Source of the DNA: Terrimicrobiaceae bacterium
GTDB taxonomy: Bacteria > Verrucomicrobiota > Verrucomicrobiia > Chthoniobacterales > Terrimicrobiaceae
Assembly: GCA_041752695.1 (NCBI GenBank)
Contig: JBGSVZ010000127.1
Span: forward strand, 1 to 24,000
Length of the DNA: 24,000 bases
Direction of reading: 5' to 3'
Shown here: piece by piece, positions 1,606 to 22,024 of the stretch
Position numbering within the stretch: the stretch's first letter is position 1
Layout: every line of letters starts with the position of its first letter
Notes under the pieces: model-generated
What the model saw: only the letters and a program-made list of their open reading frames with translations
What the model was told of the DNA's origin: nothing
Database searches by the model: none
Position numbers and translations under genes: made by a program

Positions 1606-1656
1606 AAATCTGACACAAAAATCAAGTATTCAGTCGTAAGTCGTTGATTATCAGGG

Positions 1657-1727
1657 AGCGGGTGAAGGGAATCGAACCCTCGTGTCCAGCTTGGGAAGCT
1701 GGCGTTCTGCCATTGAACTACACCCGC
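1657..1727 (-). tRNA. tRNA-Gly (anticodon CCC)
   Basis: The reverse complement folds as a 71-nt cloverleaf:
- acceptor GCGGGTG/CACCCGC
- D-arm GTTC-AATGGCA-GAAC
- anticodon arm CCAGC-TTCCCAA-GCTGG, with anticodon CCC at + strand 1693-1695
- T-arm GAGGG-TTCGATT-CCCTT
- discriminator T
CCA is not encoded. Confidence 0.9.
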
Positions 1728-8517: not shown

Positions 8518-10560
8518 TCAAGCCGGCGTCGCTTTCTGCAGGAACTGTTGGTGTCCGAGGACCGCCTTTTCAAAAGCCTCGTGTTCCCCCGCATCCAACC
8601 ACTCCGGAAGTCGGGCGGCAGAGCGCTGCCATTTTGCCAGCCACTCGGGACCGAGCAGCTCGTGACGGCTGGCCAGAGGGGTTTCCCGCGCGGCCGGGGT
8701 GAAAGCGATGGTCGTCTCCTGTTTCGCTCCGGTGCTGCGTCCGCGCGCGACGAGAAATCCCGCGACAAGCAAGGCCGCCCGCGAGGCCGTGGAAACGGTG
8801 TAGGTGAAAAGCTCGGCCGGACGATGGCCGCAGACCGCGAAGAGACGGCGGAACGCCGCCAGCGTCCACTGGTCGCCGTTCGTTTTGCCGGAGAACATGT
8901 CGTAAAAAATTACCTCCGGCGGCTCGGGGGCGAGGGCCATGGATTCCTGGAAATTTCCCGGCACCAGCGTCCAGCTCAGGCCCGGGTGCAGGCGCGATTC
9001 CCAGCGTCCGGTTTTCAGAATTCCGGACGGTCCACCGTGGCGCAGGTAGGTGAAAAGTTCGTTGTATTCAAAAGCCAGCCGCAGCGAGTCGAGATCGTTT
9101 TCGAAGCTGATGAGATGCATGGGCCGGACCGGGCCGGTGGCGGCCTGTTCCTCGTAGCAGCGGATCGCTCCCATCGCGTTGGCGGCCGCGCCGAGACCGA
9201 CGTCCCAGATGACCAGGGGTTCTGACGAAAGATCCGGCCGCACCCGCTCAGCGAGATGGGATTGCTCGATATACAAGCGCCGCGCCTCCTCCATCGGGGG
9301 CGTGCGTGAGTGCATGATTTCCCCGGAATCCACGTGGAGGATGCTGGCGAAGCCCTCCCGCGCGGTGTGGATGCGATACGCGCCGCGGGTGGGTGGTTTG
9401 ACTTTTTTCGGTCCAGGATCTACCGCCGGATTGTCGAGATCGTCCTCCTGGAGGAAGGCGCGCTTGGCGTGATAAAGGTCCAAAAACCGATCCGCCAGAA
9501 TGCTCTCGCGGATCTCCCGCATGAGCTGATGGTAAAAATGGATGTTGTGTTTGCCGAGCAACTGCCAGCCGAGCGTCTCCTTGGTCTTGGTGAGATGGTG
9601 CAGGTAGGCGCGGGAATACCGCGCACAGGTTGGACACTCGCAGGCGAGGTCGAGAGGCTCCTGGGAAAACTTATACACGCCCCGACGCATCTGCAAAAAA
9701 CCACGGGAGGTGAAAGCCCCGCCGCGCTGGGCGACTTGCGTGGGGATAATGCAGTCAAACATATCGACGCCGCGATGCACGGCTTCGAGAATGTCCAACG
9801 GCGTGCCCACGCCCATGAGGTAGCGCGGTTTGTCCTCCGGCAGAAGCGCCGCCGTAAATTCGCACATGTCCTCGCGTTCGGCTTTGCTCTCGCCCACCGC
9901 GAGGCCGCCGATGGCCATGCCGTCGAAATCCAAGGCACAGAGCCCTTCTGCGCTGGCGCGCCGCAGGTCTTTGTACAGCGCGCCCTGCACGATGCCGAAC
10001 ATCGCCTGCAAGGAATCCCCACGCGCCGCCAGACTGCGCACGGCCCACCGCTGGGTGAGTTCGAGGGCGTCGCGGGTGGTGGCTTCATCGGAGGTCGAAG
10101 CCACGCACTGGTCGAGCGCCATCATGATGTCGCTGCCGATGGCAATTTGCGTTTCGATACTCAACTCGGGGCTGAGCAGAATGGTTTTCCCGTCGAGATA
10201 ACTTTGAAAAACCGCGCCCGCCTCGGTCATGGACCGTGAGTGCGGCAGGGAAAAAATCTGAAACCCGCCGGAGTCCGTCAGCACGGAACGCTTCCAGCTC
10301 ATGAAACCGTGAATTCCCCCCGTGTGACGGAACACCTCCGGACCGGGACGCAGGAGCAGGTGGTAGGTATTGGCTAACAGGATCTGCGAACCCGAGGATT
10401 CCAGCGTGTCCGGCCGCTGGGCCTTCACCGTGGCCTGCGTGCCGACGGGCATGAAGAGCGGGGTGAGGACCTCGTTGTGCAAAGTCTGGAATCGGGCCGC
10501 GCGGGCGCTCGACCCGGAGGCCCGGGCTTCAACGCGGAAATTCAGACGATTCATGGGCAA
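8518..10560 (-). CDS. tgt: tRNA-guanine transglycosylase (queuine tRNA-ribosyltransferase) fused to a C-terminal MnmC-like (DUF752-type) SAM-dependent methyltransferase domain
   Basis: Residues 1-372 carry all Tgt hallmarks:
- FMPVGTQATVK
- LANTYHLLLRPG
- TDSGGFQ
- GMAIGGLAVGE
- PRYLMGVGTP
- GVDMFDCIIPT
- Zn site CECPTCARYSRAYLHHL
Residues about 393-620 resemble the MnmC methyltransferase module:
- GEIMHSRTPPMEEARRLYIEQS
- VIWDVGLGAAANA
- HLISFEND
- VIFYDMFSGKTNGDQWT..FRRLF....AELFTYTVSTASRAALLVAGF. Confidence 0.85.
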   Translation of the reverse strand: MPMNRLNFRVEARASGSSARAARFQTLHNEVLTPLFMPVGTQATVKAQRPDTLESSGSQILLANTYHLLLRPGPEVFRHTGGIHGFMSWKRSVLTDSGGFQIFSLPHSRSMTEAGAVFQSYLDGKTILLSPELSIETQIAIGSDIMMALDQCVASTSDEATTRDALELTQRWAVRSLAARGDSLQAMFGIVQGALYKDLRRASAEGLCALDFDGMAIGGLAVGESKAEREDMCEFTAALLPEDKPRYLMGVGTPLDILEAVHRGVDMFDCIIPTQVAQRGGAFTSRGFLQMRRGVYKFSQEPLDLACECPTCARYSRAYLHHLTKTKETLGWQLLGKHNIHFYHQLMREIRESILADRFLDLYHAKRAFLQEDDLDNPAVDPGPKKVKPPTRGAYRIHTAREGFASILHVDSGEIMHSRTPPMEEARRLYIEQSHLAERVRPDLSSEPLVIWDVGLGAAANAMGAIRCYEEQAATGPVRPMHLISFENDLDSLRLAFEYNELFTYLRHGGPSGILKTGRWESRLHPGLSWTLVPGNFQESMALAPEPPEVIFYDMFSGKTNGDQWTLAAFRRLFAVCGHRPAELFTYTVSTASRAALLVAGFLVARGRSTGAKQETTIAFTPAARETPLASRHELLGPEWLAKWQRSAARLPEWLDAGEHEAFEKAVLGHQQFLQKATPA

Positions 10561-10716: not shown

Positions 10717-11763
10717 TCAACGAACCGGCGCGTGGCAAAACCCTCCGCCATGTTTGGCGGCATATTGCTGATGGTATTCCTCAGCCCGGTAAAAGGGGCC
10801 CGCAAGTTCCACCTGGGTGACAATGGGGTTTCTGAAAGCGCCGTCTTTTTCCAGACGGGCAATTTTGACGCGGGTGGCGGCCTCTTGTTGCGGTGTGGTG
10901 AAAAACACTGCCGAGCGGTAGTTGTCGCCCACGTCAAACCCCTGACGGTTCAAGGTGGTGGGATTATGGATATCGAAGAGCCCGTCCAGCAACTGCGCGT
11001 AAGAGACGACAGCCGGATCGTAATCCACCTTCACCACTTCAGCATGGCCGGTCCTGTGGGAGCAAACCTGGTCGTAGGTCGGATCCTGTGTCGAGCCTCC
11101 CGCATAGCCGACCGCGGTCGCGGTGACGCCCTTCATCTTGCTGAAGGCTTCTTCCACGCCCCAGAAGCAACCTGCCCCGAAGATGGCTGTCTCTGTTTGG
11201 CGCGGAGCCTTATCCTGAAAACTCAGCGAGGCAGAGTTGATGCAGTAACGCAGACCGGTGGGTACGGGACCATCTGAAAAGACATGGCCAAGATGCGTGT
11301 CGCACCGGGCGCAATGGATCTCGTCGCGCGCCATGCCATAACTCACATCCCGGTCTGTCGCGACATTTTCCGCCGCGACCGGCTGGAAAAAGCTGGGCCA
11401 GCCGGTGCCGGATTCAAATTTCGCATCTGATCGGAAGAGCGGCAGCCCGCAGCCCACACAGGAATAGACCCCTTCCTTATGGTTGTCGTGAAACATTCCA
11501 CAGAATGCCCGCTCCGTCCCCTGGGCCCGGGCGACTTTGTATTGCTCCAGCGTGAGGCGGGCTTTCCATTCTTCGTCCGTCTTGATCACGCGGGGAACCA
11601 AAGCGGGTTCGTTGAGAGTGCCGTCCTCCCTGAGGAGGCGAACGGTGACATTTTCCGGTTTTGTTTTCATAGGGTTTGGTTTCGCGCCTGCCTGGACATT
11701 GAGCAGCGAGGCCGCGAAGAGTCCACCGGCAAGGGCGGCGAAGGAGATGACGAGAAATTTCAT
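10717..11763 (-). CDS. msrAB: Secreted bifunctional methionine sulfoxide reductase MsrB-MsrA
   Basis: 348 aa.
- N-terminal signal peptide: [26 protein letters not shown].
- MsrB (SelR) domain with two CxxC Zn motifs (CVGCG, CARCD) and catalytic RYCINS.
- MsrA domain with GCFWG and [12 protein letters not shown].
No thioredoxin domain is present. Confidence 0.9.
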
Positions 11764-11777
11764 AATATGGTATTCCG

Positions 11778-11807
11778 ATAAGTCGGAATCGGGTGGGAAT
11801 CCTTACG
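11778..11807 (-). promoter_or_regulatory. Regulon motif site A (upstream of msrBA): CGTAAGGAT-N11-TCCGAC-TTAT
   Basis: One of seven aligned sites with invariant GTAAGG and CGAC 15 nt apart. It ends 14 nt before ATG 11763. The downstream half lies within the perfect dyad ATTCCGA-CTTA-TCGGAAT (11772-11789). Confidence 0.5.
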
Positions 11808-11840
11808 ACAAACGAAATGTGCGAACGGAGATTCAGGATG

Positions 11841-11870
11841 TGTAAGGAAACCAGGCTTTGAACGACCAAT
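11841..11870 (+). promoter_or_regulatory. Regulon motif site B (upstream of the membrane-protein/Rieske operon): TGTAAGGAA-N11-AACGAC-CAAT
   Basis: Same motif and spacing, divergent from site A. ATG 11869 overlaps the motif. The next in-frame ATG, at 11878, lies 7 nt downstream. Confidence 0.55.
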
Positions 11871-12585
11871 GCGCGGGATGGGAGTAACTTTGGCCATTTC
11901 GTTTTGGACCGTCGCGGGGATCTACCTGGCGATCGGCTTGCTTTTTGCCGTGCCGTTCGTGATCCGGTGGGCCGGACGCCTCGACCCCGCGGCGGAGAAG
12001 GGAACCTGGGGTTTCCGGATGGCGATTCTTCCGGGGGTGGCGGCGCTGTGGCCGTTGCTTCTGCTGAAAATGCTGCGTTCCCGGCGCGATCAGCCGGCTC
12101 CTCCCGACACCGGGCAGGTCGCCACCGCTGCGGGTCTGCGGCGCATGCATGGAGTGGCCATTGTGCTGCTGGCGGTGATCGTTCCGGTGGTTTGCGTGGG
12201 CGCTTTGATGGGACGCCCCCGCGAACGGCACTCGACGGTCACCCAACTCCAGACGCGACCACTCCCGCAGGTGATTTCCCTTCCGACGGCGTGGCCGGAA
12301 GCGCTCCCCATCACGGCCTCGCTGCGGACCGATGGAACGCGCTCCCAGTTGCAAATGGATGTCACCCAGCCTCTGGAGGATCCCGTCGTCGCACTGTACT
12401 GGAGTCCGGGAAAGAACGAGTCGGGGGTGACGAAGGACGCCGTTTTTCTGGGGTCCCTCTGGGGACCTTCCACTCTTTTGTTCGAGCTTCCTGAGAAGGC
12501 CCGGACCCAACCCGGTTATCTGACTCTGCTCGCCCTCGCCGGTGAGCAGCGGGTCATCGGTTCCCTCCCTCTCCCGGCAAAATAG
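11869..12585 (+). CDS. Hypothetical membrane protein (3 predicted TM helices plus a C-terminal soluble domain)
   Basis: 238-aa ORF with hydrophobic helices (LAISFWTVAGIYLAIGLLFAVPF, MAILPGVAALWPLLLL, VAIVLLAVIVPVVCVGAL). The stop lies 2 nt before the next gene's start, which indicates an operon. The alternative start 11878 fits the promoter geometry better. No family was recognised. Confidence 0.55.
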   Translation: MRGMGVTLAISFWTVAGIYLAIGLLFAVPFVIRWAGRLDPAAEKGTWGFRMAILPGVAALWPLLLLKMLRSRRDQPAPPDTGQVATAAGLRRMHGVAIVLLAVIVPVVCVGALMGRPRERHSTVTQLQTRPLPQVISLPTAWPEALPITASLRTDGTRSQLQMDVTQPLEDPVVALYWSPGKNESGVTKDAVFLGSLWGPSTLLFELPEKARTQPGYLTLLALAGEQRVIGSLPLPAK

Positions 12586-12587
12586 CC

Positions 12588-14399
12588 ATGTCCGTCGCCT
12601 ATCATTCCGTCGGATGGAATCGTCAAAAGCGCCTTTACGATGGGGTGATCGGCGGACTCCTCCTCCTCGTCTTGCTGGCGTACGCCGGGACGGTTTTTCT
12701 TTTCCAGCCTCTGACGACCGCGGAGACGTTCATCATTCGATTCACGGCCATCGCCGCGCTCACGCTGCTCCATGTGATCCTGGCCATCGGACCACTAGCC
12801 CGGCTGGACCCCCGCTTTTTGCCGTTGCTGTACAATCGCCGCCATCTGGGGGTGACGATGTTCGTGTTCGCCGCGATCCACGGGGTCTTCTGCATCATCC
12901 AATTTCACGCGGCTGGTGATGTGAATCCGCTGGTCAGCGTGCTGACCGCCTATCGCCGCGAATATCTGGCGGCGATATCCGGCGGGGAAAGTTTCGGGTA
13001 TTTTCCTTTTGAAGCGCTGGGCCTCGCCGCGCTGGGGATCTTCTTTCTCATGGCCGCAACAAGTCATGATTTTTGGCTGAAGAATCTGGGGCCATCGTTT
13101 TGGAAGATCCTGCACATGCTGGTCTATCTCGCCTATGGTCTGGTGCTCGCGCACGTCTTTCTCGGAGCGCTTCAGTCCGAACGGAGTCCATTTTTTCCCG
13201 CGGTGCTGGGCGCGGGCTTCGTGGGACTCGTCGGGATGCATCTGGCCGCGTTTGCGCAAGAGCGCCGGCGCGACCGCCTGCGGCAGGAGGCCGCCCGGAA
13301 TGGGTTTGTTTCCGTGGCCACGCTGGGAGATTTGCAACCGGATCTCGGACATGTGGCATTGCTGAACGGCGAGCGCATCGCCCTTTTCCTGCGCGGAGGC
13401 AAAGTCTTTGCCCTATCCAATGTCTGCCGGCATCAGGGCGGCCCGCTGGGTGAGGGACGGATTGTCAACGGCTGCCTGACCTGCCCCTGGCACGGATACC
13501 AATACAAGGTGGAAGACGGGTGCAGCCCTCCGCCGTTTACGGAGGTCGTCCCCACGTATTCCGTGCAGGTGATCGGTCAGGAAATTCATGTTTCGTCCGA
13601 TCCGCTTCCCCTCGGGACGCGGTCCGAGGGCGTGGCGGCTGGGAAGGCGGAGGATTCCCGATCTTCCGGAGAGTTTTACATTGGCTGGCAATCGAAGATT
13701 CCGGCCGGCCTCGGGAGATCCGTCCGTTCCGTGGTCCTCGGCCTTGGTGTCGCCCTGCCTCTCCTTTTTGTGTTCCTGGCCCATTGGCAGAATCCGGTGG
13801 ATGTGGGGGCGTTCGAGTTCGGGGTCGAGCGGGATTTCTCCGGCGTTCTTTTCGAGTCTCCCCTTCCGCTTCTGCAAGCGGATTGGGGCGATTCGCCTGC
13901 CGGCAAAAATTTTCTTCTCGTGGGAGCGGGCAAGTTCGGGCCGCCCGGGGTGATCAAAGGAAAAAACGGCCAGCGGGTTCGCTTCAAGGGCTCGCTCATC
14001 TACCGGAACGGCGTGACCATGATCGAGATGAACCAGCCCGATTCGTTCGAAGTTCTTGATGAAACCCGCTCGGCCATGCCGCCGCTCACGACGCTGGGAG
14101 AGGGGACGTTTAGCGGGGAACTGGTGGACACCAAGTGTTTCTTCGGAGTCATGCGTCCGGCCACCGGCAAGGTGCATCGCGCCTGCGCCGTCGTCTGTCT
14201 GAGCGGCGGGGTTCCTCCCGGACTTCTCGTGCGGGACGATCACCGCGATGCCGTCGTCCTGCTGCTGGTCGGGGCCGAAGGAAAGCCGTTGGACATCGAC
14301 TTCGAACTGGCGGCCCGGGTGCTGGAGGTTCACGGCAAACTGGAACTCCACAGTGGGACCCCGGTTCTGCGGGTGGACTCATGGAGGGTGAAGGACTGA
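12588..14399 (+). CDS. Multidomain membrane redox protein: ferric-reductase/MsrQ-like 6-TM heme domain, Rieske [2Fe-2S] domain, a seventh TM helix and an unknown C-terminal domain
   Basis: 603 aa.
- The TM region has RRHLGVTMFVFAAIHGVF and WKILHMLVYLAYGLVLAHVF, His-bearing helices like YedZ/MsrQ and PF01794.
- The Rieske motifs are CRHQGGPL (C280/H282) and CPWHGYQY (C299/H302), at nt 13425-13493.
- An extra TM helix spans residues 378-400.
- The C-terminal 200 aa contain three Cys (CFFGV..HRACAVVCLSGG). Confidence 0.8.
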   Translation: MSVAYHSVGWNRQKRLYDGVIGGLLLLVLLAYAGTVFLFQPLTTAETFIIRFTAIAALTLLHVILAIGPLARLDPRFLPLLYNRRHLGVTMFVFAAIHGVFCIIQFHAAGDVNPLVSVLTAYRREYLAAISGGESFGYFPFEALGLAALGIFFLMAATSHDFWLKNLGPSFWKILHMLVYLAYGLVLAHVFLGALQSERSPFFPAVLGAGFVGLVGMHLAAFAQERRRDRLRQEAARNGFVSVATLGDLQPDLGHVALLNGERIALFLRGGKVFALSNVCRHQGGPLGEGRIVNGCLTCPWHGYQYKVEDGCSPPPFTEVVPTYSVQVIGQEIHVSSDPLPLGTRSEGVAAGKAEDSRSSGEFYIGWQSKIPAGLGRSVRSVVLGLGVALPLLFVFLAHWQNPVDVGAFEFGVERDFSGVLFESPLPLLQADWGDSPAGKNFLLVGAGKFGPPGVIKGKNGQRVRFKGSLIYRNGVTMIEMNQPDSFEVLDETRSAMPPLTTLGEGTFSGELVDTKCFFGVMRPATGKVHRACAVVCLSGGVPPGLLVRDDHRDAVVLLLVGAEGKPLDIDFELAARVLEVHGKLELHSGTPVLRVDSWRVKD

Positions 14400-14429
14400 A
14401 AGAAGCGTCCTTTCCAGGAAAAGGAAAAA

Positions 14430-14464
14430 CCGCCGCCCTCTTTCAGAGGCGGCGGCTCTTTTTT
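14430..14464. terminator. Bidirectional Rho-independent terminator between convergent genes
   Basis: CCGCCGCCCTCT-TTC-AGAGGCGGCGG hairpin with one bulged C, followed by CTCTTTTTT. It is preceded by GAAAAGGAAAAA, which gives a T-rich tract on the other strand. Confidence 0.7.
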
Positions 14465-14479
14465 GAGAACCCTACGACC

Positions 14480-14695
14480 TTACCGGGTCTTGGAATTGCC
14501 CGAACCCACGAGCTTCTCGAACTTCATCTGGATCGAGTTGTCTTTCATGACCTTCGTCTTGACCTGATACTGCGCGCCGCAGGAGGTGCAACGGAAGGCA
14601 GGGGCAACGACGACGGTTTCTTCCGCCATGGCGGAGGTTCCGAGGAATCCCAGCGCCAAGGTGGCGAGGGCCAGTGTTTTTGTTAGTGTTTTCAT
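14480..14695 (-). CDS. Small secreted protein with a CxxC motif (71 aa)
   Basis: Internal ATG at 14695 of ORF 14480-14845; the longer form would overlap the NRDE gene. It has a signal peptide MKTLTKTLALATLALGFLGTSAMA followed by EETVVVAPAFRCTSCGAQYQVKTKVMKDN... It has its own motif site C and a downstream terminator. Confidence 0.6.
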   Translation of the reverse strand: MKTLTKTLALATLALGFLGTSAMAEETVVVAPAFRCTSCGAQYQVKTKVMKDNSIQMKFEKLVGSGNSKTR

Positions 14696-14737
14696 AGTTA
14701 TTAATTTTTGTTTCAACGCATGATTGTGCGCTTGCAG

Positions 14738-14767
14738 ATGAGTCGGGGTCGGGCTTGAAACCTTACA
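14738..14767 (-). promoter_or_regulatory. Regulon motif site C (upstream of the small CxxC protein): TGTAAGGTT-N11-CCCGAC-TCAT
   Basis: Same invariant GTAAGG-N15-CGAC. The TAA within TGTAAGG is the stop codon of the NRDE gene (14763-14765). The leader to ATG 14695 is 42 nt, the only long leader in the set. Confidence 0.45.
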
Positions 14768-15503
14768 GTGCGCTGGAAGAGAACCCGGCGGACAGACGGA
14801 GGGACATGGTGAATGGGGGCCCGCTGCAACAAGGTGGTCCGGCATGATAGGCCATCACCGCCCCGGTGGAGTTCAGGGAGATCTCCGTGCAACTGACGGT
14901 GCAGGCATCGGCGCGGTGCATGCAGAGGGAAAACGCACCGTTGGTGGGAACATGCGAACGATGCAGCCGGCGCAGCCAGGGAAGCGTGTCAGCGTCGGCT
15001 TCTCCGGCGGCATCGCCGCAGGTCAGGCGGCGCACGTGATTGGCTTGCTCCTCATCGAAACCGGAGGAAAACCAGTGGCATTTTTCCCAGGGCAGAGCGG
15101 AGCCTTCCAACAGGCTTCCACTCGATCTCCATTCCTGGAGACGTTTTTCGCTTGGCGAAACGATGATCAGCCGAAAGGGGTTCATGCGCGAAAGTGGCAG
15201 TGCCTTGAGCCGGACTTCCGCCTCCCCGGCGGTTTCTTCGGCGAGCAGAGCGGGAATGACCTCGCCGCGACTGAGTGTGCCGGCGAGTTGGGGCTGGGAA
15301 TACCAGTTGATGAGGGCCAGAGTGAGGCCCGACTCATTAATGCCAGCCCATGTGCCGCCATGGAGTTCGTGGGGATAGAGTGCGGCCAATCCGCCGCACC
15401 GATGAATCGAAGGCGGCAAGGCCGCCGGGCGCGAAAGGAGCTCGTCGCGATTCATTAGCAGATCAAATCCGCCGGAATGAGGGAGGAAGGAAACCGAGCA
15501 CAT
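14763..15503 (-). CDS. NRDE family protein (DUF833 / TANGO2-like, N-terminal Cys)
   Basis: 246 aa. It begins MCSVSF and contains the family-defining LMNRDE motif at residues 16-21. The start lies 3 nt after the upstream gene's stop. Confidence 0.75.
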   Translation of the reverse strand: MCSVSFLPHSGGFDLLMNRDELLSRPAALPPSIHRCGGLAALYPHELHGGTWAGINESGLTLALINWYSQPQLAGTLSRGEVIPALLAEETAGEAEVRLKALPLSRMNPFRLIIVSPSEKRLQEWRSSGSLLEGSALPWEKCHWFSSGFDEEQANHVRRLTCGDAAGEADADTLPWLRRLHRSHVPTNGAFSLCMHRADACTVSCTEISLNSTGAVMAYHAGPPCCSGPPFTMSLRLSAGFSSSAL

Positions 15504-15506
15504 GAA

Positions 15507-17105
15507 TCAGTCGGCCAGGGGATGACAAAGGCTGCGCGATTGATATCGCCTCCATTCGGAAAAGATCGTCCTCAAGGTATCCGCCCGATGACCAAGGCGG
15601 CGGTTCTCACTGGCAATGGCAAAGACAAGTTCCCATTGCTCGAAGAGGAGGCGATAGGCTTCCCTCAGCGATTTCGAGGCATCATAGGCGCTGGTGGCTT
15701 CCGAGGCTGCGCCATTGAGTTCGAGGATGGTGAAGCCCCGGCCGCACTGAAATTCCTCCAGCGATGCAAACCTCACGTCATAACGACCAATGAAAAAGCC
15801 GGGGACTTTCTGCGAAATCTCATCGATACGGGCCTCGAGTTGTTCGCTCCAAAGATGCATGCCGTCGCGAAAAATACAGCCTTGGGCGTGGTTGCCGGCC
15901 TCGACCAGCCGGAGGCTTTGGCCGAAGGGAAGAACCACATCGCACCGGTCCCGGAACCGGCGCAGATAGACGTCCGCCATCATGGCCGCCCGGGCATCAG
16001 CGCGGATGAGTTCCTCCACGCTCCGATGACCGTCGCCAAAGACCACCGGAAAAATTTTCTCGGTGATGGCAAAAATGCGGCCGCAGGGCTCGTGCGGAAA
16101 CCGGTAGTAGAACACTCCCGTTTCGTGCGGGCCGGGAACGTATTTTTGGGCAACGATCGGGACATTCACCGCCGCGAGATAGTTGCAGACATCACTCTCC
16201 GTTCGGGCAACCTTGAACCCGCTACCCCGCTGGGCCACATCAGGCTTGAGCACAAAGGGGAATTCCAGTTCCCCACGTTGCAGAAGATCCTCGATCGGTG
16301 CCATGCAGCCTCCCTCGATCAGGAAACTCGGCGCGACCCAATCCGGGCTGGATCGCTGAAGGTCTTGCAGCGTGGCGTATTTCGATTCGCCGATGAGCCC
16401 GCCGGTGAACATGCCGGGATTGGCGCAGGTGGGGAGATTAAATCCGCGATACTTGACCGACAGCCGCAGGTACTGGAACGCAACGGGAAGGTAGAACAAC
16501 CACGCTGGCCAGAACTCCCATTGCAGCCAGCGCTGCACCCACGGAGCACGATGAAGGGCCCCGGTGATTTTTCCGCGGAAGGGGATCAGGACGGACAGAA
16601 CAAGAATGAGCAGACCAACCCACGCCCCGTGGCGGTGGAGGGCATGAAAAAGTTCCGGTGCGGCTTTTCCCAGTTGGCCGACGAGCCAGAAGCCTCCCGC
16701 CACCCAGAGTGCGGCCAGGAGACCGGTGATACCGGCAAAAAACAGCACCGGCATCCGCAGCAGCCCCGCGGTGAGGTAGGTCGGCAGACGGGTGCCGGGA
16801 ATGACCCGGCAAATTACCAGGGAAAGGAGTCCATGGCGGCTAAACCAGGCTTCGCTTTGCGCAAGCTTTTCCATGGTGCGGTCGTTCTTCCCCCAAAGCC
16901 GGTTGACCAACGGCCGGCCAAATTGCCGGGCAATGAAATAGAGCCCGACATCCCCCGCCCAGATACCAAGGAAACAGGCGACGAAGGCGGGCCTCGCGGC
17001 CATCATGTTCATCGAAGCGAGAAACCCGCCGCTCAAAACCGCCGCGTCCTCGGAGAGAAACGTGAAAAAGAAGAGTCCGGCAAAATACCAGGCGTCCGGT
17101 TCCAT
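15507..17105 (-). CDS. Membrane fusion protein: DedA/VTT (SNARE-associated) domain plus C-terminal ATP-grasp ligase domain
   Basis: 532 aa.
- The N-terminus has FLSEDAAVLSGG and GIWAGDVGLYFIARQFGRPLV...CRVIPGTRLPTYLTAG, the DedA/PF09335 pattern, plus further TM helices.
- The C-terminal 300 aa or so have ATP-grasp features: FPFVLKPDVAQRGSGFKV, IVAQKYVPG, FPVVFGDGHRSVEELI, and FTILELNGAASEATSAYD. Confidence 0.7.
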   Translation of the reverse strand: MEPDAWYFAGLFFFTFLSEDAAVLSGGFLASMNMMAARPAFVACFLGIWAGDVGLYFIARQFGRPLVNRLWGKNDRTMEKLAQSEAWFSRHGLLSLVICRVIPGTRLPTYLTAGLLRMPVLFFAGITGLLAALWVAGGFWLVGQLGKAAPELFHALHRHGAWVGLLILVLSVLIPFRGKITGALHRAPWVQRWLQWEFWPAWLFYLPVAFQYLRLSVKYRGFNLPTCANPGMFTGGLIGESKYATLQDLQRSSPDWVAPSFLIEGGCMAPIEDLLQRGELEFPFVLKPDVAQRGSGFKVARTESDVCNYLAAVNVPIVAQKYVPGPHETGVFYYRFPHEPCGRIFAITEKIFPVVFGDGHRSVEELIRADARAAMMADVYLRRFRDRCDVVLPFGQSLRLVEAGNHAQGCIFRDGMHLWSEQLEARIDEISQKVPGFFIGRYDVRFASLEEFQCGRGFTILELNGAASEATSAYDASKSLREAYRLLFEQWELVFAIASENRRLGHRADTLRTIFSEWRRYQSRSLCHPLAD

Positions 17106-17111
17106 GACGCC

Positions 17112-17642
17112 TCAGGCCGCCAGGCGGGCCGTTTTTTGAAGGTGTTGGATCGTCGAAGGCGCGACCCCGAATCCCTCCGGCAGCGCCACCTCCAACAAGC
17201 CGCCCATCACGCCGATGAGAGCGTAGTGATGGATGGCATGGACGGTGCAAAACATCAGCTCGCGGCCCACGGTCGAGGCCGCCATGGGAGAGTCAACCGC
17301 AGAATAGGAAACCTGGCTCCGGGCCCACACAAAACGATCCAGCCCGGCTTCCGGCATCTCGCCGGCTTTGCGGCGAAGTTCCCGGGTTTTGGCCAGCGCC
17401 ACCTCCCGTTCGGTCTCGATGCGCGGATCGCGCTTGCGGGCATCGTAATCGGCCACCTCGTCCTCAAGGCCATCGAAAACACAGCAAAAATGATCCAGAC
17501 AGTGCCGGTAGTGACCCCCAATGGAGGCATGGAACGCGGCCGGGACCTTGATCATGTAGGCCGCATCATCGAGAGCCACCAAAAGCGTTTCGCCCTGTCC
17601 GAGGATCTCCCGCACTGCGTTGAGAATGATGGACGAATTCAT
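17112..17642 (-). CDS. DinB-family (DinB_2-like) four-helix-bundle metalloprotein
   Basis: The start was taken at ATG 17642, which forms an ATGA overlap with the DoxX stop (MNSSIILNAV...). The His triad signature is IGGHYRHCLDHF and VHAIHHYALI. The gene ends 6 nt before the next start. Confidence 0.65.
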   Translation of the reverse strand: MNSSIILNAVREILGQGETLLVALDDAAYMIKVPAAFHASIGGHYRHCLDHFCCVFDGLEDEVADYDARKRDPRIETEREVALAKTRELRRKAGEMPEAGLDRFVWARSQVSYSAVDSPMAASTVGRELMFCTVHAIHHYALIGVMGGLLEVALPEGFGVAPSTIQHLQKTARLAA

Positions 17643-18046
17643 TTCGCGATCAGATTCCCGACTAGGGGAATCGTGCGGCGGTAGATCAAAAGAAGAACGG
17701 CGCAGCACACGGCAACCACCAACGCCAGTCCGAAGAGCAAACCGTGATCGCCCTGCACCTCGATGCCAAGCACGGTCAGGTGACTCATGATGGCGCCTCC
17801 GATCACGCCCAGCGCGAGGCCCGCCCCGAGCCAGGTCAGACCCGGCCAGAACAGCAGAATGGCGGCAATCAATTCAACCACCCCTGATCCGATGCGACCC
17901 CAGGGTTCGAGACCGACTTTGGTGAAGATATACACGGACTCCGGAGCGGAGGTGAATTTGAAGAACAAGGTCTGCAGCAGGATGACGGCCGCGACGATCC
18001 GGCAGATCCAGGCCAGGACCACTTCGGTTTTGTTGAGTTCATGCAT
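17639..18046 (-). CDS. DoxX family membrane protein
   Basis: 135 aa with four TM helices. RIVAAVILLQTLFFKF, GSGVVELIAAILLF and GGAIMSHL fit the DoxX pattern. Confidence 0.75.
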   Translation of the reverse strand: MHELNKTEVVLAWICRIVAAVILLQTLFFKFTSAPESVYIFTKVGLEPWGRIGSGVVELIAAILLFWPGLTWLGAGLALGVIGGAIMSHLTVLGIEVQGDHGLLFGLALVVAVCCAVLLLIYRRTIPLVGNLIAK

Positions 18047-18055
18047 AGGTTTCCG

Positions 18056-18085
18056 ATTCGTCGGACGTCCCAGGCATTCCTTACA
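18056..18085 (-). promoter_or_regulatory. Regulon motif site D (upstream of the DoxX operon): TGTAAGGAA-N11-TCCGAC-GAAT
   Basis: Same motif. It ends 9 nt before ATG 18046. The downstream half forms the dyad TCCGA-CGAA-TCGGA (18052-18065). Confidence 0.6.
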
Positions 18086-18103
18086 GGGGAGCCGCAGAAT
18101 CTT

Positions 18104-18844
18104 CTATTTCTCCAGCCAGCCGCCGACAGCCTGTAGGGGAGCCAGGCTTTGTGGGGAGTGCACCCACACGGCCAGGGCGGAAAGGGGAGCGGCTGCTTTC
18201 TCGGGAAGCACAAGTTGCGCGGTGTATTTGCCGGCAGCAGAGGCAACCATTTCCGACTGCACGAAACCCAGCGCCAGGAAATTGTGCTGCAAAATTTTTC
18301 CCGCATTCTCACCACGCCGGACTTCGGTGCCCACGCCCTGCCCCAAGGGGACGAGCGCAACCGTCAGCGGGCCGTTGACTCTTCCAGCCGGGATGAAGGA
18401 GACATCGACCGTCCCGTCATCGCTCACAGTGACGCGGAGCCGCCCGGCTTTTTCCTTCGAGGGGGCTGGCAGTGCACCGCTCCTCCGCCATTCCGCGCCG
18501 TTGAGCACGAATTCCGGCGTGTAGATGGTGGACGCGTTCCATTCCTCACCGTAGGCCCGTTGGCGCTGGGTGAATTCCGCGGAGGCGAACCGGTCGGGCC
18601 AGCCGAGCGAATCCCAGTAGTCCACATGAAACGCAACGGGAACAAACTCCTTCCACAGGCCAGATTGGTCCTTGAGACCGCCCAGCCACGCTTCCGCTGG
18701 CGGGCAACTGCTGCACCCCTCCGAAGTGAAGAGCTCCAGAAGGGCAACCCGCTCCTCCGGACTCTCCAGAACGGCCGCGCTGCGGGCCTTTCCGACGCAC
18801 ACGGTCAGGACGGCGAGGGCGAGGAGGGAAAATGCAGGGTGCAT
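18104..18844 (-). CDS. DUF1223 domain protein (secreted, thioredoxin-like CxxC)
   Basis: 246 aa with a signal peptide. LELFTSEGCSSCPPAEAWL, FHVDYWDSLGWPDRF, FTQRQRAY and IYTPEFVLNG match the DUF1223 family signature. Confidence 0.85.
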   Translation of the reverse strand: MHPAFSLLALAVLTVCVGKARSAAVLESPEERVALLELFTSEGCSSCPPAEAWLGGLKDQSGLWKEFVPVAFHVDYWDSLGWPDRFASAEFTQRQRAYGEEWNASTIYTPEFVLNGAEWRRSGALPAPSKEKAGRLRVTVSDDGTVDVSFIPAGRVNGPLTVALVPLGQGVGTEVRRGENAGKILQHNFLALGFVQSEMVASAAGKYTAQLVLPEKAAAPLSALAVWVHSPQSLAPLQAVGGWLEK

Positions 18845-18853
18845 TTTTTTTCG

Positions 18854-19300
18854 TTATTTCCCCTTTTTCTCCACGAGGGAGGGCCAGTTCGTGTCAGCCT
18901 TCTTGAGGTTTCCGGCACTATCCTTGCTGAAGTCTTTCCTTACTCCGAGGCTGTATTGCAAAAGCAGGCGGCCATCAACGATCTGGAACGCGTTCGGGTC
19001 AATCGAAGCGGAGTAGCCCTGGGACACGGCCCAGGCGCAGAAGCCACCGAATTGGGGTTCGTATTTCGCGGGATTCGCATCGAAGGCGGCCTTGTGCTCG
19101 GCCGTCGCGAAATAATAGATCACCCCGTTGGCGCTGCTCTGAAATTTGGGGTCGCCTTTCACGGCCTTGTTGTCGGTGAAATACGCGACCGGGTCGTAAC
19201 CCTTGATTCCCACTCCGCTTCGGTCGGTATTGACGAGGTCCTTGCCCAGGGCAAAGGGAGCAAGAGCGATGAGCACTGCAATGATGAGATAATTTTTCAT
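18854..19300 (-). CDS. YHS domain-containing secreted protein
   Basis: 148 aa with a signal peptide. GYDPVAYF, YYFATAEHKAAFDANPAKYEPQFGGFCAWAV and DGRLLLQYS match YHS-type proteins. It lies 9 nt upstream of the DUF1223 gene. Confidence 0.85.
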   Translation of the reverse strand: MKNYLIIAVLIALAPFALGKDLVNTDRSGVGIKGYDPVAYFTDNKAVKGDPKFQSSANGVIYYFATAEHKAAFDANPAKYEPQFGGFCAWAVSQGYSASIDPNAFQIVDGRLLLQYSLGVRKDFSKDSAGNLKKADTNWPSLVEKKGK

Positions 19301-19305
19301 TTCCC

Positions 19306-19335
19306 ATTGGTCGGACAGCCAACGGTTTCCTTACA
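19306..19335 (-). promoter_or_regulatory. Regulon motif site E (upstream of YHS-DUF1223): TGTAAGGAA-N11-TCCGAC-CAAT
   Basis: Same motif. It ends 5 nt before ATG 19300. Confidence 0.6.
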
Positions 19336-19347
19336 AACCGCTGCAAT

Positions 19348-19668
19348 TCAGTGGCCCTCGTTCCGTAAGGCCTGCTTGAGCCGCTCTTGCGCGGCGGGTG
19401 AAAGGCCCCCGCCTTGCTCCAGGTGTTTTGGTAATTGGCTGATGGCCTTACCCAGAAAATCGATCTGCCGAAGGTAGCGGGCGCAGAACTTGCAAAACAT
19501 CCGGTGGAGGTGAAGCCGGAATCGCAATACGGGAGGAAGCTTTCGGTCGCGTCCCTCAGAAGTCAGCCTCACCACCTCATGGCAATCGGGCGTGATCAAC
19601 CAGATCAGATCGGCCAAGGCGCTTCTGATTCCACGGGGTTCATGATGCGTGTCGGGAGGATGAGGCAT
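19348..19668 (-). CDS. Zinc-binding anti-sigma factor (ZAS, zf-HC2 type), soluble and RsrA-like in size
   Basis: 106 aa. The spacing C29-x25-H55-x3-C59-x2-C62 (PDCHEV ... HRMFCKFC) is the ZAS signature. There is no TM segment. It lies directly downstream of the ECF sigma gene. Confidence 0.75.
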   Translation of the reverse strand: MPHPPDTHHEPRGIRSALADLIWLITPDCHEVVRLTSEGRDRKLPPVLRFRLHLHRMFCKFCARYLRQIDFLGKAISQLPKHLEQGGGLSPAAQERLKQALRNEGH

Positions 19669-19675
19669 CGCACTA

Positions 19676-19705
19676 TTTCGTCGCGTTCAGGCGCAATTCC
19701 TTACA
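19676..19705 (-). promoter_or_regulatory. Regulon motif site F (upstream of the anti-sigma gene): TGTAAGGAA-N11-CGCGAC-GAAA
   Basis: Same motif. It ends 7 nt before ATG 19668, in the 122-nt gap between the sigma and anti-sigma genes. Confidence 0.55.
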
Positions 19706-19790
19706 TCCCGATCCTGCGGAGCATGACATTTCGGGGTGTCAACCGTGATGAACGTCACCAGCTTCTCCTTCCACCAATGATCCGGCTCAA

Positions 19791-20412
19791 TCACAGCTGG
19801 CGTCCGCCCTCTCCCCCAAAGTAGCCCAACTCCAGGCAAAGCCGCAACGCCAGGCGGGCCCGGTGCAGCATGACCCAGAGGTTCGATTCGCTGACGTTGA
19901 GAGTGGCGCAGATCTCCTTGCTCGGAACATCATCCATCTCACGCATCATAAAAACCTGCGCGGTTGGCCCGGGGATCTTCTGCAGGCACAGTTGCAGAGC
20001 CTGCCAGAATTCGTTCCGTTTGAGCGCCTCCTCACCTTCGGGGCTTCCAATCGGTGGGTCCGCGCTCGTGGATCCAATAATCCTCGCCGTCGAAACGGTC
20101 GGAGTGTTCGTCCTTGAAAAATTCCAGATCGGTGAAACTCGTTTCGCGTCCGAGTTTGCGGAAGTGGTCACAGATCTTGTTTTTGAGGATTCCCACCAGC
20201 CAGCTCCGCACACCCGACCGGCCCGCAAAACGTTCCTGCGAGCGCACCGCTGCCAGGAGAGTGTCTTGCACAAGATCTTCCGCCAGAGTCCCGTTACGCA
20301 CCCGAATGAGGGCATAGCGGTAAAGGCAGTCACCGTGTTCGTCCACCCATTTTTCGGGATCCGCATCTGCCGGACTCGAGCCGGGCTGCTTGAGATGATT
20401 GGAAATTTCCAC
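19791..20412 (-). pseudogene. ECF-type RNA polymerase sigma-70 family factor, interrupted by a single-nucleotide frameshift (or a sequencing error)
   Basis: Region 2 (DLVQDTLLAAVRSQERFAGRSGVRSWLVGILKNKICDHFRK) is in ORF 20032-20412, which has a GTG start. Region 4 (FWQALQLCLQKIPGPTAQVFMMREMDDVPSKEICATLNVSESNLWVMLHRARLALRLCLE) is in the +1-shifted frame of ORF 19791-20525. The frames meet at the coding-strand sequence AAG CCC CGA AGG TGA, where the + strand reads GGGG at 20041-20044. Deleting one C gives a continuous ...DWKPEGEEALKRNEFW... protein of about 206 aa. Confidence 0.75.
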
Positions 20413-20468
20413 GGTGACAGACAGACCGTTTTCTTATCGGGGCTCCAGAGGCGTGAAAAGAAGATTTC

Positions 20469-20498
20469 TGTAAGGAATCGCCTGACCTCCCGACCAAA
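20469..20498 (+). promoter_or_regulatory. Regulon motif site G (upstream of the olsB-like gene): TGTAAGGAA-N11-CCCGAC-CAAA
   Basis: Same motif on the + strand. It ends 6 nt before ATG 20505, in the divergent region shared with the sigma gene. Confidence 0.6.
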
Positions 20499-20504
20499 CG
20501 GGCA

Positions 20505-21275
20505 ATGATCGCGCTCCGCCCGCACCTTCTCTCCGGACTATTTTCCCGGCGGCACTACCAGGTGCGCTTCGCCAAAACGCGCGATGAGGTTGAGGCGGCG
20601 TTGCGGTTGCGATTTGCCGTCTTCAATCTCGAACTTCACGAAGGATTGGTTTCCTCCTACGCCAGCGGGCTCGACGAAGACGAATTCGACGCCGTCTGCG
20701 ATCACCTCGTCGTTTGTGAAGAACCCAGCGGCGAGGTGGTTGGCACCTACCGCCTGCAAACCGGGGCCATGGCGGCACAGAATCTCGGCTACTATAGCGC
20801 CCGTGAATTTGATTTCTCGCCCTTCGAACCGGTGCGGCATTCTCTCGCGGAACTCGGCCGGGCCTGTGTCCACAAAGACCACCGAAACCTGACCGTCATC
20901 AGTCTGCTCTGGAGGGAGATCGTCCGCTACGCTGTCGCCCGAAAAGCGCGCTACCTGATTGGGTGCAGCTCGCTGACCTCGCAAGATCCAGCGTTTGGTC
21001 TAGCGATGTACCGGCGACTGGCGGAAAAACATCTGGCGGACCTCACTTTTCAGACCAGACCGCTCCCGGAGTTCGCCATGACCGGCAGCCCGGCGCTCGG
21101 GGATTGTCCGCCTCCGCCCAAATTGCTCCGGGCTTACCTCAATGTAGGCGCGAAAATCTGCGGCCCACCCGCGCTGGACCGGGAATTCCAGACGATAGAT
21201 TTTCTCACCCTGCTCGACTGTGACAACGGGTCGCCCGTTGCGATCAAACATTTCCTCACCCTTCACAACTCGTGA
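20505..21275 (+). CDS. olsB: GNAT-family N-acyltransferase, OlsB-like (acyl-ACP:amino acid N-acyltransferase of aminolipid synthesis)
   Basis: 256 aa. ALRLRFAVFNLEL, DEDEFDAVCDHLVV, VVGTYRLQ, YYSAREFDF, ELGRACVHKDHRN and YLIGCSSL follow the OlsB / hemolysin-like Acetyltransf_5 pattern. It has a GTGA overlap with the downstream acyltransferase. Confidence 0.75.
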   Translation: MIALRPHLLSGLFSRRHYQVRFAKTRDEVEAALRLRFAVFNLELHEGLVSSYASGLDEDEFDAVCDHLVVCEEPSGEVVGTYRLQTGAMAAQNLGYYSAREFDFSPFEPVRHSLAELGRACVHKDHRNLTVISLLWREIVRYAVARKARYLIGCSSLTSQDPAFGLAMYRRLAEKHLADLTFQTRPLPEFAMTGSPALGDCPPPPKLLRAYLNVGAKICGPPALDREFQTIDFLTLLDCDNGSPVAIKHFLTLHNS

Positions 21276-22024
21276 GTGCCGGGCAATTTCTGTGTGCGCT
21301 CTTGCGCGTCGGCGGTCTCGGAGCCGTGATCGTGGCTGGCATTTTTCGCTACCAAAAAGCAAGGCGCACGTCGGACGACCTGCCAGGGAAACTGGCCTGG
21401 ATGCAGGGGATGAGCCGGGGTTTTCTGCGCGTCCTGGACTGCGACGTTCATCGCACGGGGAACATTCCCCGGCAGGGCCTCATTGTCAGCAACCATCTCA
21501 GCTATGTGGACATCCTCGTGATCGGATCCGTCTGCCCCGCGGTCTTTGTGGCCAAGAGCGAGGTGCGCCGTTGGCCAGTCTTTGGCTGGTTGAGCGAAAT
21601 GGCCGGGGCCATTTTTGTCGAACGCCACCGGAGTCGCAATGTGCGCGTTCAACTGGCGGAAATCATCCGTCCGCTCGAGGCGGGATTGCCCGTGGTTCTT
21701 TTTCCTGAAGGCACGAGTTCGGACGGTTCCCGGGTTTTGCCCTTCCACAGTTCCCTGCTCGAAGCGGCACGTGAGGCGCAACAGACAGTGACCCCCTGCG
21801 CCATCTCGTATGGGTGGCTGGACGGTGGGAGCGAGTGCCACGACGTGTGTTATTGGGGCGACATGGTTTTCGCCGTGCATCTCTTCAAACTGCTCTCCAA
21901 AAAAAAATCCCTACGGGCGGGAGTGTCTTTCGGACAGCCCCGCGCGCTCGTCACCGACCGGAAGCGCGAGGCTGTTCGTTTTCAGAAGGAAGTCGCCGGA
22001 CTGCTTAATAACTGTGCACCGTGA
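21272..22024 (+). CDS. olsA: Lysophospholipid/lyso-aminolipid O-acyltransferase, PlsC family (OlsA-like)
   Basis: 250 aa with a GTG start. It has an N-terminal TM helix, the HX4D motif in VSNHLSYVDILV, and the FPEGTSSDG motif. It is paired with the olsB-like gene. Confidence 0.75.
   Translation: MSAGQFLCALLRVGGLGAVIVAGIFRYQKARRTSDDLPGKLAWMQGMSRGFLRVLDCDVHRTGNIPRQGLIVSNHLSYVDILVIGSVCPAVFVAKSEVRRWPVFGWLSEMAGAIFVERHRSRNVRVQLAEIIRPLEAGLPVVLFPEGTSSDGSRVLPFHSSLLEAAREAQQTVTPCAISYGWLDGGSECHDVCYWGDMVFAVHLFKLLSKKKSLRAGVSFGQPRALVTDRKREAVRFQKEVAGLLNNCAP

Follow-up and report, generated by a model that had tools for sequence, protein, structure and literature searches.

The Motif and Its Seven Copies

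The stretch of DNA analyzed here, a window of 24,000 nucleotides (nt) from an uncultured Terrimicrobiaceae bacterium of the phylum Verrucomicrobiota (GenBank assembly GCA_041752695.1, contig JBGSVZ010000127.1, positions 1 to 24,000), contains a gene island of 9 kb in which seven transcription units are each preceded by a copy of the bipartite motif GTAAGG-N15-CGAC. These seven sites are most probably, with a probability of about 0.85, cognate promoters for the ECF (extracytoplasmic function) sigma that is encoded within the island at 19791-20412. This interpretation, first proposed in an earlier note on the same DNA, gained support from the co-occurrence of the motif with the sigma family, from conservation confined to the two boxes, from its intergenic location, from a match to the promoters of Neisseria sigmaE, and from the redox and repair character of the genes downstream. 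The motif is genuine and not a product of chance, lies between genes and faces them, and follows TIGR02943 sigma factors and NF052368-type zinc-binding anti-sigma (ZAS) proteins across phyla. The sites and the regulatory genes are as follows.

Site A: 11779..11806 (core 11782-11806), minus strand, GTAAGGATT-N12-CGACTTA; upstream of an msrB-msrA fusion; 18 nt from CGAC to ATG
Site B: 11842..11869 (core 11842-11866), plus strand; upstream of a membrane-protein/Ferric_reduct-Rieske operon; ATG at 11878, 11 nt after CGAC
Site C: 14739..14766 (core 14742-14766), minus strand; upstream of a small secreted CxxC protein gene; leader of 46 nt
Site D: 18057..18084 (core 18060-18084), minus strand; upstream of a DoxX_2/DinB_2/VTT-ATP-grasp/TANGO2 string; 13 nt from CGAC to ATG
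Site E: 19307..19334 (core 19310-19334), minus strand; upstream of YHS-DUF1223; 9 nt from CGAC to ATG
Site F: 19677..19704 (core 19680-19704), minus strand; upstream of the remaining ZAS anti-sigma gene; 11 nt from CGAC to ATG
Site G: 20470..20497 (core 20470-20494), plus strand; upstream of an olsB/olsA-like acyltransferase pair; 10 nt from CGAC to ATG
ECF sigma gene: 19791..20412, minus strand; TIGR02943 family; split by an extra C at 20040 in the contig
First ZAS anti-sigma gene: 19687..19794, minus strand; stump of 35 codons whose GTG start overlaps the sigma stop (GTGA)
Second ZAS anti-sigma paralogue: 19348..19668, minus strand; small soluble protein of 106 amino acids (aa) with C29-x25-H55-x3-C59-x2-C62

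A search of both strands of the window for GTAAGG-N15-CGAC returned exactly seven matches, the same seven sites that had been listed before, while dinucleotide-preserving shuffles of the window held a mean of 0.01 matches and reached seven in 0 of 100 cases. With the pattern extended to CGACnAA and two mismatches allowed over its 12 specified bases, eight sites were found against 1.4 expected, the sole extra being a chance-level match at 183-210, and the relaxed form GTAAG-N16-CGWC-nAW yielded no site in the window beyond the seven. An additional GTAAGGAA, previously described as lacking the CGAC half, was located at 18936-18943 on the minus strand, inside the YHS gene, and does lack that half. 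By the open reading frames (ORFs) and by independent gene calls alike, each of the seven sites falls between genes or touches a gene end and is aimed at the adjoining gene; the gene identities given in the earlier note were borne out by Pfam and NCBIfam. The consensus reads T-GTAAGG-W-w-t, 12 nt, CGAC-n-A-A-Y. The msrBA gene and the membrane/Rieske operon diverge from a gap of 105 nt that holds sites A and B back to back, and sites F, E, D, and C are spaced along one long minus-strand gene string that is closed by a strong terminator at 14425-14460, with the -35 box of site C overlapping the stop codon of the TANGO2-like gene.

At site A (11772-11789, ATTCCGA-CTTA-TCGGAAT) and site D (18052-18065, TCCGA-CGAA-TCGGA), small palindromes cover the -10 box together with the predicted start. 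Their TCGGAA part recurs after CGACnAA at site D of the syntenic locus L081, with near copies at sites A and G of that locus. A preference in the initiation region or the site of a second regulator are possible explanations.

Distribution of the Motif Among Relatives and Other Phyla

Eighty loci, one genome per species, were taken from a sigma-alignment scan; they comprised 59 family loci (sigma at least ~37% identical) and 21 loci with other ECF sigmas. The strict motif was found in 40 of the 59 family loci (74 sites) and in none of the 21 loci whose ECF sigmas are more distant, and the relaxed motif occurred 112 times in 913 kb of family loci versus once in 308 kb of control loci. Motif-bearing loci belong to at least six phyla and include Verrucomicrobiota, Acidobacteriota, Planctomycetota, Nitrospirota, Gamma- and Betaproteobacteria, Latescibacteria, Rhodothermaceae, and others. 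Conservation extends to positions outside the search pattern, such as T at -1 (87% of sites), W after GTAAGG, and the A-A-Y that follows CGACn in the family loci (69%, 91%, and 84% of sites, respectively). Some family loci carry CGTC variants of the -10 box, and those without the motif, including a metagenome-assembled genome of Akkermansia, showed nothing convincing when two mismatches were allowed. Because the promoter code is almost unchanged across phyla, regulon prediction by pattern search should be reliable for this sigma family.

Comparison with locus L081, whose sigma is 77% identical, showed the motif at the orthologous position for all seven units, so that the conservation upstream of orthologous genes that the earlier note had named as a check is indeed seen; behind the F copy of this locus, the anti-sigma gene has been lost. 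Identity between paired promoters of the window and L081 was 0.88 in the -35 box and 0.90 in the -10 box but 0.40 in the spacer and the flank upstream; constraint is confined to the two boxes. The L081 orthologue of site B has 12 nt between CGAC and the start codon, with conservation of the N-terminus MG(V/E)TLA, and at that of site D the sequence downstream of CGAC is nearly identical. In five Chthoniobacterales loci for which independent gene calls exist, intergenic DNA makes up 7.7% of the sequence, yet it holds 29 of 31 sites (p = 2e-30).

The first genes downstream of the motif elsewhere encode zf-HC2 anti-sigmas (11), the sigma itself (6), Pyr_redox_2/pyridine-nucleotide disulfide oxidoreductases (5), AhpC/Redoxin peroxiredoxins (4), and YHS proteins (4), as well as DoxX, thioredoxins, SCO1, Msr, and glyoxalases. 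Genes for DoxX, MbnB/DUF692, and DUF2063-NGO1945_C adjoin the orthologous sigma in the methanotrophs L027, L028, and L046 and in Chthoniobacter flavus (L085); in C. flavus, the motif precedes the DoxX ATG (L085 position 11217) by 10 nt.

In Proteobacteria, Latescibacteria, and others, the motif is found inside the coding DNA of sigma region 4.2, ~90 nt before the anti-sigma gene (loci L016, L018, L021, L022, L027, L028, L030, L033, L038, L042, L047, L048, and L053). There it is embedded in the stretch coding for I-C-K-E-L..S/P-T-N-L-W, where the -35 box is made up by TGT-AAG-G. The Cys codon of the sigma is TGT in 12 of 12 motif-bearing genes versus TGC in 24 of 28 genes without the motif, a bias that suggests selection for a putative internal sigma-dependent promoter driving only the anti-sigma.

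Relationship to Known Sigma Factor Systems

As judged from the promoter, the anti-sigma type, the targets, and the neighboring genes, the switch of the island is of the type represented by sigmaE/MseR of Neisseria and RpoE2/HrsE of Haemophilus influenzae, so that the switch and its promoter code are already known. What the island adds is the functional link proposed for uncharacterized families, the predicted leaderless design, and the feedback architecture, in a regulon that is enlarged and locally clustered.

Neisseria sigmaE (Ecf, NMB2144/NGO1944), with its anti-sigma MseR, has a regulon made up of a DoxX operon and msrAB (PMC2893595, PMC3240639); the earlier note likewise names Neisseria as a case in which an ECF sigma drives msrAB. 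The sigmaE promoter consists of a -35 element GTMAGBWTT, a spacer of 12-13 nt, and a -10 element CGTCTAAH, and a conserved A located 6 nt downstream of the -10 box coincides with the mapped gonococcal msrAB start (PMC2893595). Set beside T-GTAAGG-WWT-12 nt-CGAC-nAAY of the island, the two promoters are one -10 base apart. MseR is likewise a small soluble ZAS protein with the same C-x25-H-x3-C-x2-C spacing as the island anti-sigma. The targets agree too, since msrAB is a direct target and DoxX a target of sigmaE while the msrBA and DoxX_2 genes of the island carry the motif, and the DoxX/DUF692/DUF2063(NGO1945-like) operon stands beside the sigma in C. flavus and the methanotroph relatives. However, the Neisseria regulon consists of two units plus a small RNA and is autoregulated, whereas the island holds seven units and its sigma is not autoregulated. 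The DUF692/DUF2063 genes are absent from the island, MsrBA of the island is without a thioredoxin domain, most of its start codons abut the promoter, and the host belongs to Verrucomicrobiota.

In H. influenzae, RpoE2/HrsE controls msrAB and a DoxX cluster, responds to hypochlorous acid (HOCl), and is barely autoregulated (PMC7907618). It was assigned to ECF group 13 by its authors (PMC7907618), a group since merged into ECF293 (PMC7826278). It resembles the island in its 67-aa ZAS anti-sigma encoded after the sigma, in its targets (msrAB with a neighboring membrane-protein gene, and the DoxX cluster), and in its very weak autoregulation, but it differs in its cargo of a drug/metabolite (DMT) transporter and MtsZ, in its host-adapted gammaproteobacterial host, and in having no published promoter consensus.

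A further parallel is SigR/RsrA of Streptomyces coelicolor (ECF12): RsrA is a soluble redox-sensing ZAS protein whose Cys/His spacing is identical, and Msr and thioredoxin systems belong to the thiol-oxidative stress regulon. The sigma group and the promoter are different, the SigR promoter being GGAAT-N18-GTT, and RsrA models give only weak matches (TIGR03988, 27 bits versus a cutoff of 62.5).

The earlier note had likened the motif to that of SigF-type ECF sigmas. The motif it gave, GTAACC-N16-CGAA for Caulobacter SigF/NrsF, is correct (PMC3511200), but the closest systems are the Neisseria and H. influenzae ones, with GTAAGG and ZAS anti-sigmas. SigF and Bradyrhizobium EcfF/OsrA, the latter recognizing GTAAC(g/a)-N14-15-(t/c)CG(t/a) (PMC3511200, PMC3420878), share with the island a related motif, DoxX/DUF692/DUF2063 and Msr targets, and a response to oxidants or metals. 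Membership of the SigF/NrsF group (ECF16) was nevertheless rejected: the -35 box is GTAAC(C) in those systems and GTAAGG in seven of seven island sites, their anti-sigmas are multi-pass membrane proteins (DUF1109 NrsF, OsrA) whereas that of the island is a soluble ZAS protein, and no DUF1109 (NrsF) was detected among the window ORFs scanned.

These similarities raise the alternative that the motif is read by another, paralogous ECF sigma whose gene lies elsewhere in the genome, for instance one of the SigF/EcfF kind, with the adjacent sigma being a bystander or one of several readers. The similar boxes recognized by SigF and EcfF, the control of the same DoxX/DUF692/DUF2063 operon by Caulobacter SigF, and the fact that only 24 kb of the genome is in view would fit such an arrangement. 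It is nonetheless unlikely, given that across phyla the GTAAGG form goes with the TIGR02943 sigma and that none of the 21 control loci has it, that the motif stands upstream of this sigma or its anti-sigma in 17 loci, and that the window ORFs scanned offer no NrsF partner.

The Sigma and Anti-Sigma Genes

The two halves of the sigma gene match Sigma70_r2 (2e-15) and Sigma70_r4_2 (2e-12), and the presence of only regions 2 and 4 in a protein of ~200 aa corresponds to ECF (group IV) architecture. Once the frame is repaired, the protein scores 175 bits on TIGR02943 (cutoff 162.2), and many close homologues carry the JGI name TIGR02943. Its nearest relatives are from Chthoniobacterales, with a best identity of 86% and 70% to C. 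flavus Ellin428; in the PDB, there was no close relative of the sigma (best match 3e-8, a generic ECF) or of the anti-sigma.

The frame is interrupted by CCCC at 20038-20041 of the contig, where the 86% relative L082 has CCC. L083, a Logan assembly obtained independently (run SRR28170468), matches the contig at 100% identity over 12,618 nt apart from one C less, and it encodes an intact sigma of 206 aa (P0125). The earlier note had spoken of a sigma in need of repair, which does not hold in view of this assembly: as L083 is otherwise identical and has no extra C, the frameshift is probably an assembly error or a minor allele and not a fixed pseudogene.

Relatives have a gene for a translationally coupled ZAS anti-sigma immediately behind the sigma gene. 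In the window, this first anti-sigma gene has lost ~260 nt relative to L082 and L081, leaving the stump in both assemblies, and the anti-sigma paralogues have been lost reciprocally: both persist in L082, whereas L081 has kept the first alone and the window the second alone. The remaining 106-aa protein, encoded downstream of the sigma, has no transmembrane segment. Site F is the predicted promoter of this second paralogue, and orthologous F sites are found in L082 and L087. The ECF sigma and ZAS anti-sigma pair reported for the cluster exists in the sense that a sigma and a ZAS-type protein are both present, but the anti-sigma is the second paralogue and the coupled first one is deleted.

The state of these two genes might indicate a relic regulon, in which the sigma is frameshifted, the first anti-sigma deleted, and the promoters silent leftovers. 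The CCCC of the contig against CCC in relatives and the 35-codon stump in both assemblies would agree with this, yet it is improbable considering the intact sigma of L083, a single C apart from the contig, and the preservation of seven promoters, all target genes, and the second anti-sigma. The sigma as a pseudogene was rejected on the basis of the same assembly.

A search for degenerate sites, which took in the region upstream of the sigma gene, found no motif copy there. A block of 20 nt (AAGAAGATTTCTGTAAGGAA, within 20456-20477) that reaches through the -35 box of site G is identical in L081, its conservation far exceeding that of the other flanks. Read on the opposite strand, the block belongs to the region upstream of the sigma gene (20413-20469), which may hold the sigma's own promoter. 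A scan of 10.5-22.1 kb with a sigma-70-type consensus gave one weak match inside olsB, fewer than in shuffles, and no lead on that promoter.

Start-Codon Spacing and Predicted Leaderless mRNAs

Five of the seven units have their start codon at a distance of 9-13 nt downstream of CGAC (E, 9; G, 10; B, 11; F, 11; D, 13). A similar spacing recurs in the family loci, where at 38 of 106 sites a start codon, in 33 cases ATG, follows CGAC by 8-13 nt; at random positions, the corresponding frequencies are 10.9% for any start codon and 3.1% for ATG (p = 1e-11 and 6e-24, respectively). The chosen starts are consistent with the products, as the signal peptide or first transmembrane helix of the secreted or membrane proteins YHS and DoxX begins right at the predicted ATG, and the N-termini of the B and F products are conserved in relatives. 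Start codons so close to CGAC imply that the mRNAs of these five units are leaderless or nearly so, with predicted leaders of at most ~4 nt. The leaderless share of the regulon would accordingly be large, especially in Verrucomicrobiota.

This spacing also bears on whether the motif could be the operator of a conventional transcription factor, a repressor or an activator, instead of a promoter. The small palindromes over the -10 box and start region of sites A and D are what one would cite for an operator, but start codons 9-13 nt downstream leave no space for a separate promoter. In addition, the motif lacks symmetry and has two parts spaced in the manner of sigma-dependent promoters, what it accompanies is a sigma family and not a transcription factor, and it matches the sigmaE-dependent promoters of Neisseria, for which the msrAB start has been mapped, all of which makes an operator very improbable. 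A dispersed repeat (of the repetitive extragenic palindromic, REP, or miniature inverted-repeat transposable element, MITE, kind) or a structured RNA element in 5' leaders has next to no likelihood and was rejected: although a repeat finder grouped some copies, they share only the two short boxes, with 61-78% identity over 36 nt and freely varying spacers, and folding z-scores of -1.9 to +1.35 showed no common structure, with no Rfam match here.

Proposed Mechanism of Regulation

By analogy with Neisseria sigmaE/MseR, H. influenzae RpoE2/HrsE, and S. coelicolor SigR/RsrA, the small cytoplasmic zinc anti-sigma would hold the sigma inactive. Stress from oxidants or of a thiol-reactive kind (HOCl, H2O2, or disulfide stress) would oxidize the C-x25-H-x3-C-x2-C site of the anti-sigma and release the sigma. 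Region 4 of the sigma would then bind GTAAGG and region 2 CGAC, and RNA polymerase would start ~9-10 nt after CGAC. The seven units would be switched on together, supplying MsrBA, the MsrQ-like/Rieske operon, the secreted CxxC protein, DoxX/DinB/DedA/TANGO2, YHS-DUF1223, the OlsBA-like acyltransferases, and the anti-sigma. The anti-sigma made from site F could shut the response off as a negative-feedback arm, and as the sigma gene is without the motif, the loop would consist of negative feedback only.

Several points weigh against assigning the seven promoters to this sigma and this signal. The inducing signal, oxidant or thiol stress, is proposed by analogy, and in N. meningitidis the oxidants tested did not induce the sigmaE regulon (PMC2893595). 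The window anti-sigma scores 47.8 bits on NF052368, below the cutoff of 50, and has no Pfam zf-HC2 match; its orthologues score 52.8 bits in L087 and 57.6 bits in C. flavus, and the partner anti-sigmas of relatives are all above the cutoff (52-78 bits). The -10 box is one base off that of Neisseria (CGAC versus CGTC). Finally, the sigma gene is frameshifted in the deposited contig, though not in the Logan assembly, and it has no motif copy of its own, which is unusual for ECF sigmas.

A broader reading that joins three features of the island is tentative, and we consider it possible but doubtful. Promoters abutting start codons may give leaderless mRNAs for oxidant repair whose translation is possible even under impairment of normal initiation; the circuit may work by negative feedback alone, with the anti-sigma driven and the sigma not, or elsewhere with a promoter inside the sigma gene; and MsrBA may be re-reduced by the MsrQ-like/Rieske protein in place of thioredoxin/DsbD.

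Genes Under the Predicted Promoters

The genes assigned to sites A to E and G are the following.

10717..11763, minus strand: msrB-msrA fusion (SelR + PMSR) with an N-terminal signal peptide; target of site A
11878..14399, plus strand: genes for a 235-aa membrane protein and then a 603-aa protein; targets of site B
14480..14695, minus strand: secreted CxxC protein of 71 aa; target of site C
14763..18046, minus strand: string of four genes; targets of site D
17639-18046, minus strand: DoxX_2; target of site D
17112-17642, minus strand: DinB_2; target of site D
15507-17105, minus strand: VTT/DedA + ATP-grasp-like; target of site D
14763-15503, minus strand: TANGO2; target of site D
18104..19300, minus strand: YHS-domain protein and DUF1223; targets of site E
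18854-19300, minus strand: YHS-domain protein (NF041384); target of site E
18104-18844, minus strand: DUF1223; target of site E
20505..22024, plus strand: OlsB-like and OlsA-like acyltransferases; targets of site G
20505-21275, plus strand: OlsB-like N-acyltransferase (Acetyltransf_5); target of site G
21272-22024, plus strand: OlsA/PlsC-like acyltransferase; target of site G

These genes place a number of poorly understood families, namely DUF1223, the YHS (seleno)protein domain, bacterial TANGO2, DinB_2, DedA-ATP-grasp, MsrQ-like-Rieske, and OlsBA-like acyltransferases, under what is predicted to be one regulator of the oxidative-stress type, which offers a functional lead for each of them. 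The switch known from Neisseria and Haemophilus as sigmaE-MseR would thereby extend to Verrucomicrobiota and several other phyla. As C. flavus Ellin428 is cultured and has both an orthologous sigma and a motif-bearing DoxX operon, these predictions are accessible to experiment.

According to Pfam and NCBIfam, the 603-aa protein has an MsrQ-like Ferric_reduct domain along with a Rieske domain and a C-terminal domain rich in Cys. The periplasmic MsrBA, which is without a thioredoxin domain, is divergently co-regulated with this MsrQ-like heme-b/Rieske protein, an arrangement kept in L081 and not in L087, and the protein may provide a dedicated electron route to the periplasm. Within the site D string, the VTT/DedA fusion has a C-terminal region of ~350 aa with weak similarity to ATP-grasp, and it is kept in L081, L083, and L087 within the sigma-controlled string. 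The DUF1223 gene is found in the window and in L083 and is missing from the otherwise syntenic L081, so the cargo of the regulon varies even among close relatives.

Two further observations concern genes outside the predicted regulon. A tRNA-Gly(CCC) gene at 1655-1727 adjoins an ORF of 422 aa that resembles a phage integrase weakly, at a score under the Pfam cutoff; this region (337-1727, minus strand) may be the edge of an integrated element. At 8518-10560 on the minus strand, a protein of 680 aa joins queuine tRNA-ribosyltransferase (TGT) with Methyltransf_30, the latter as its C-terminal domain, and the same fusion occurs in L081.

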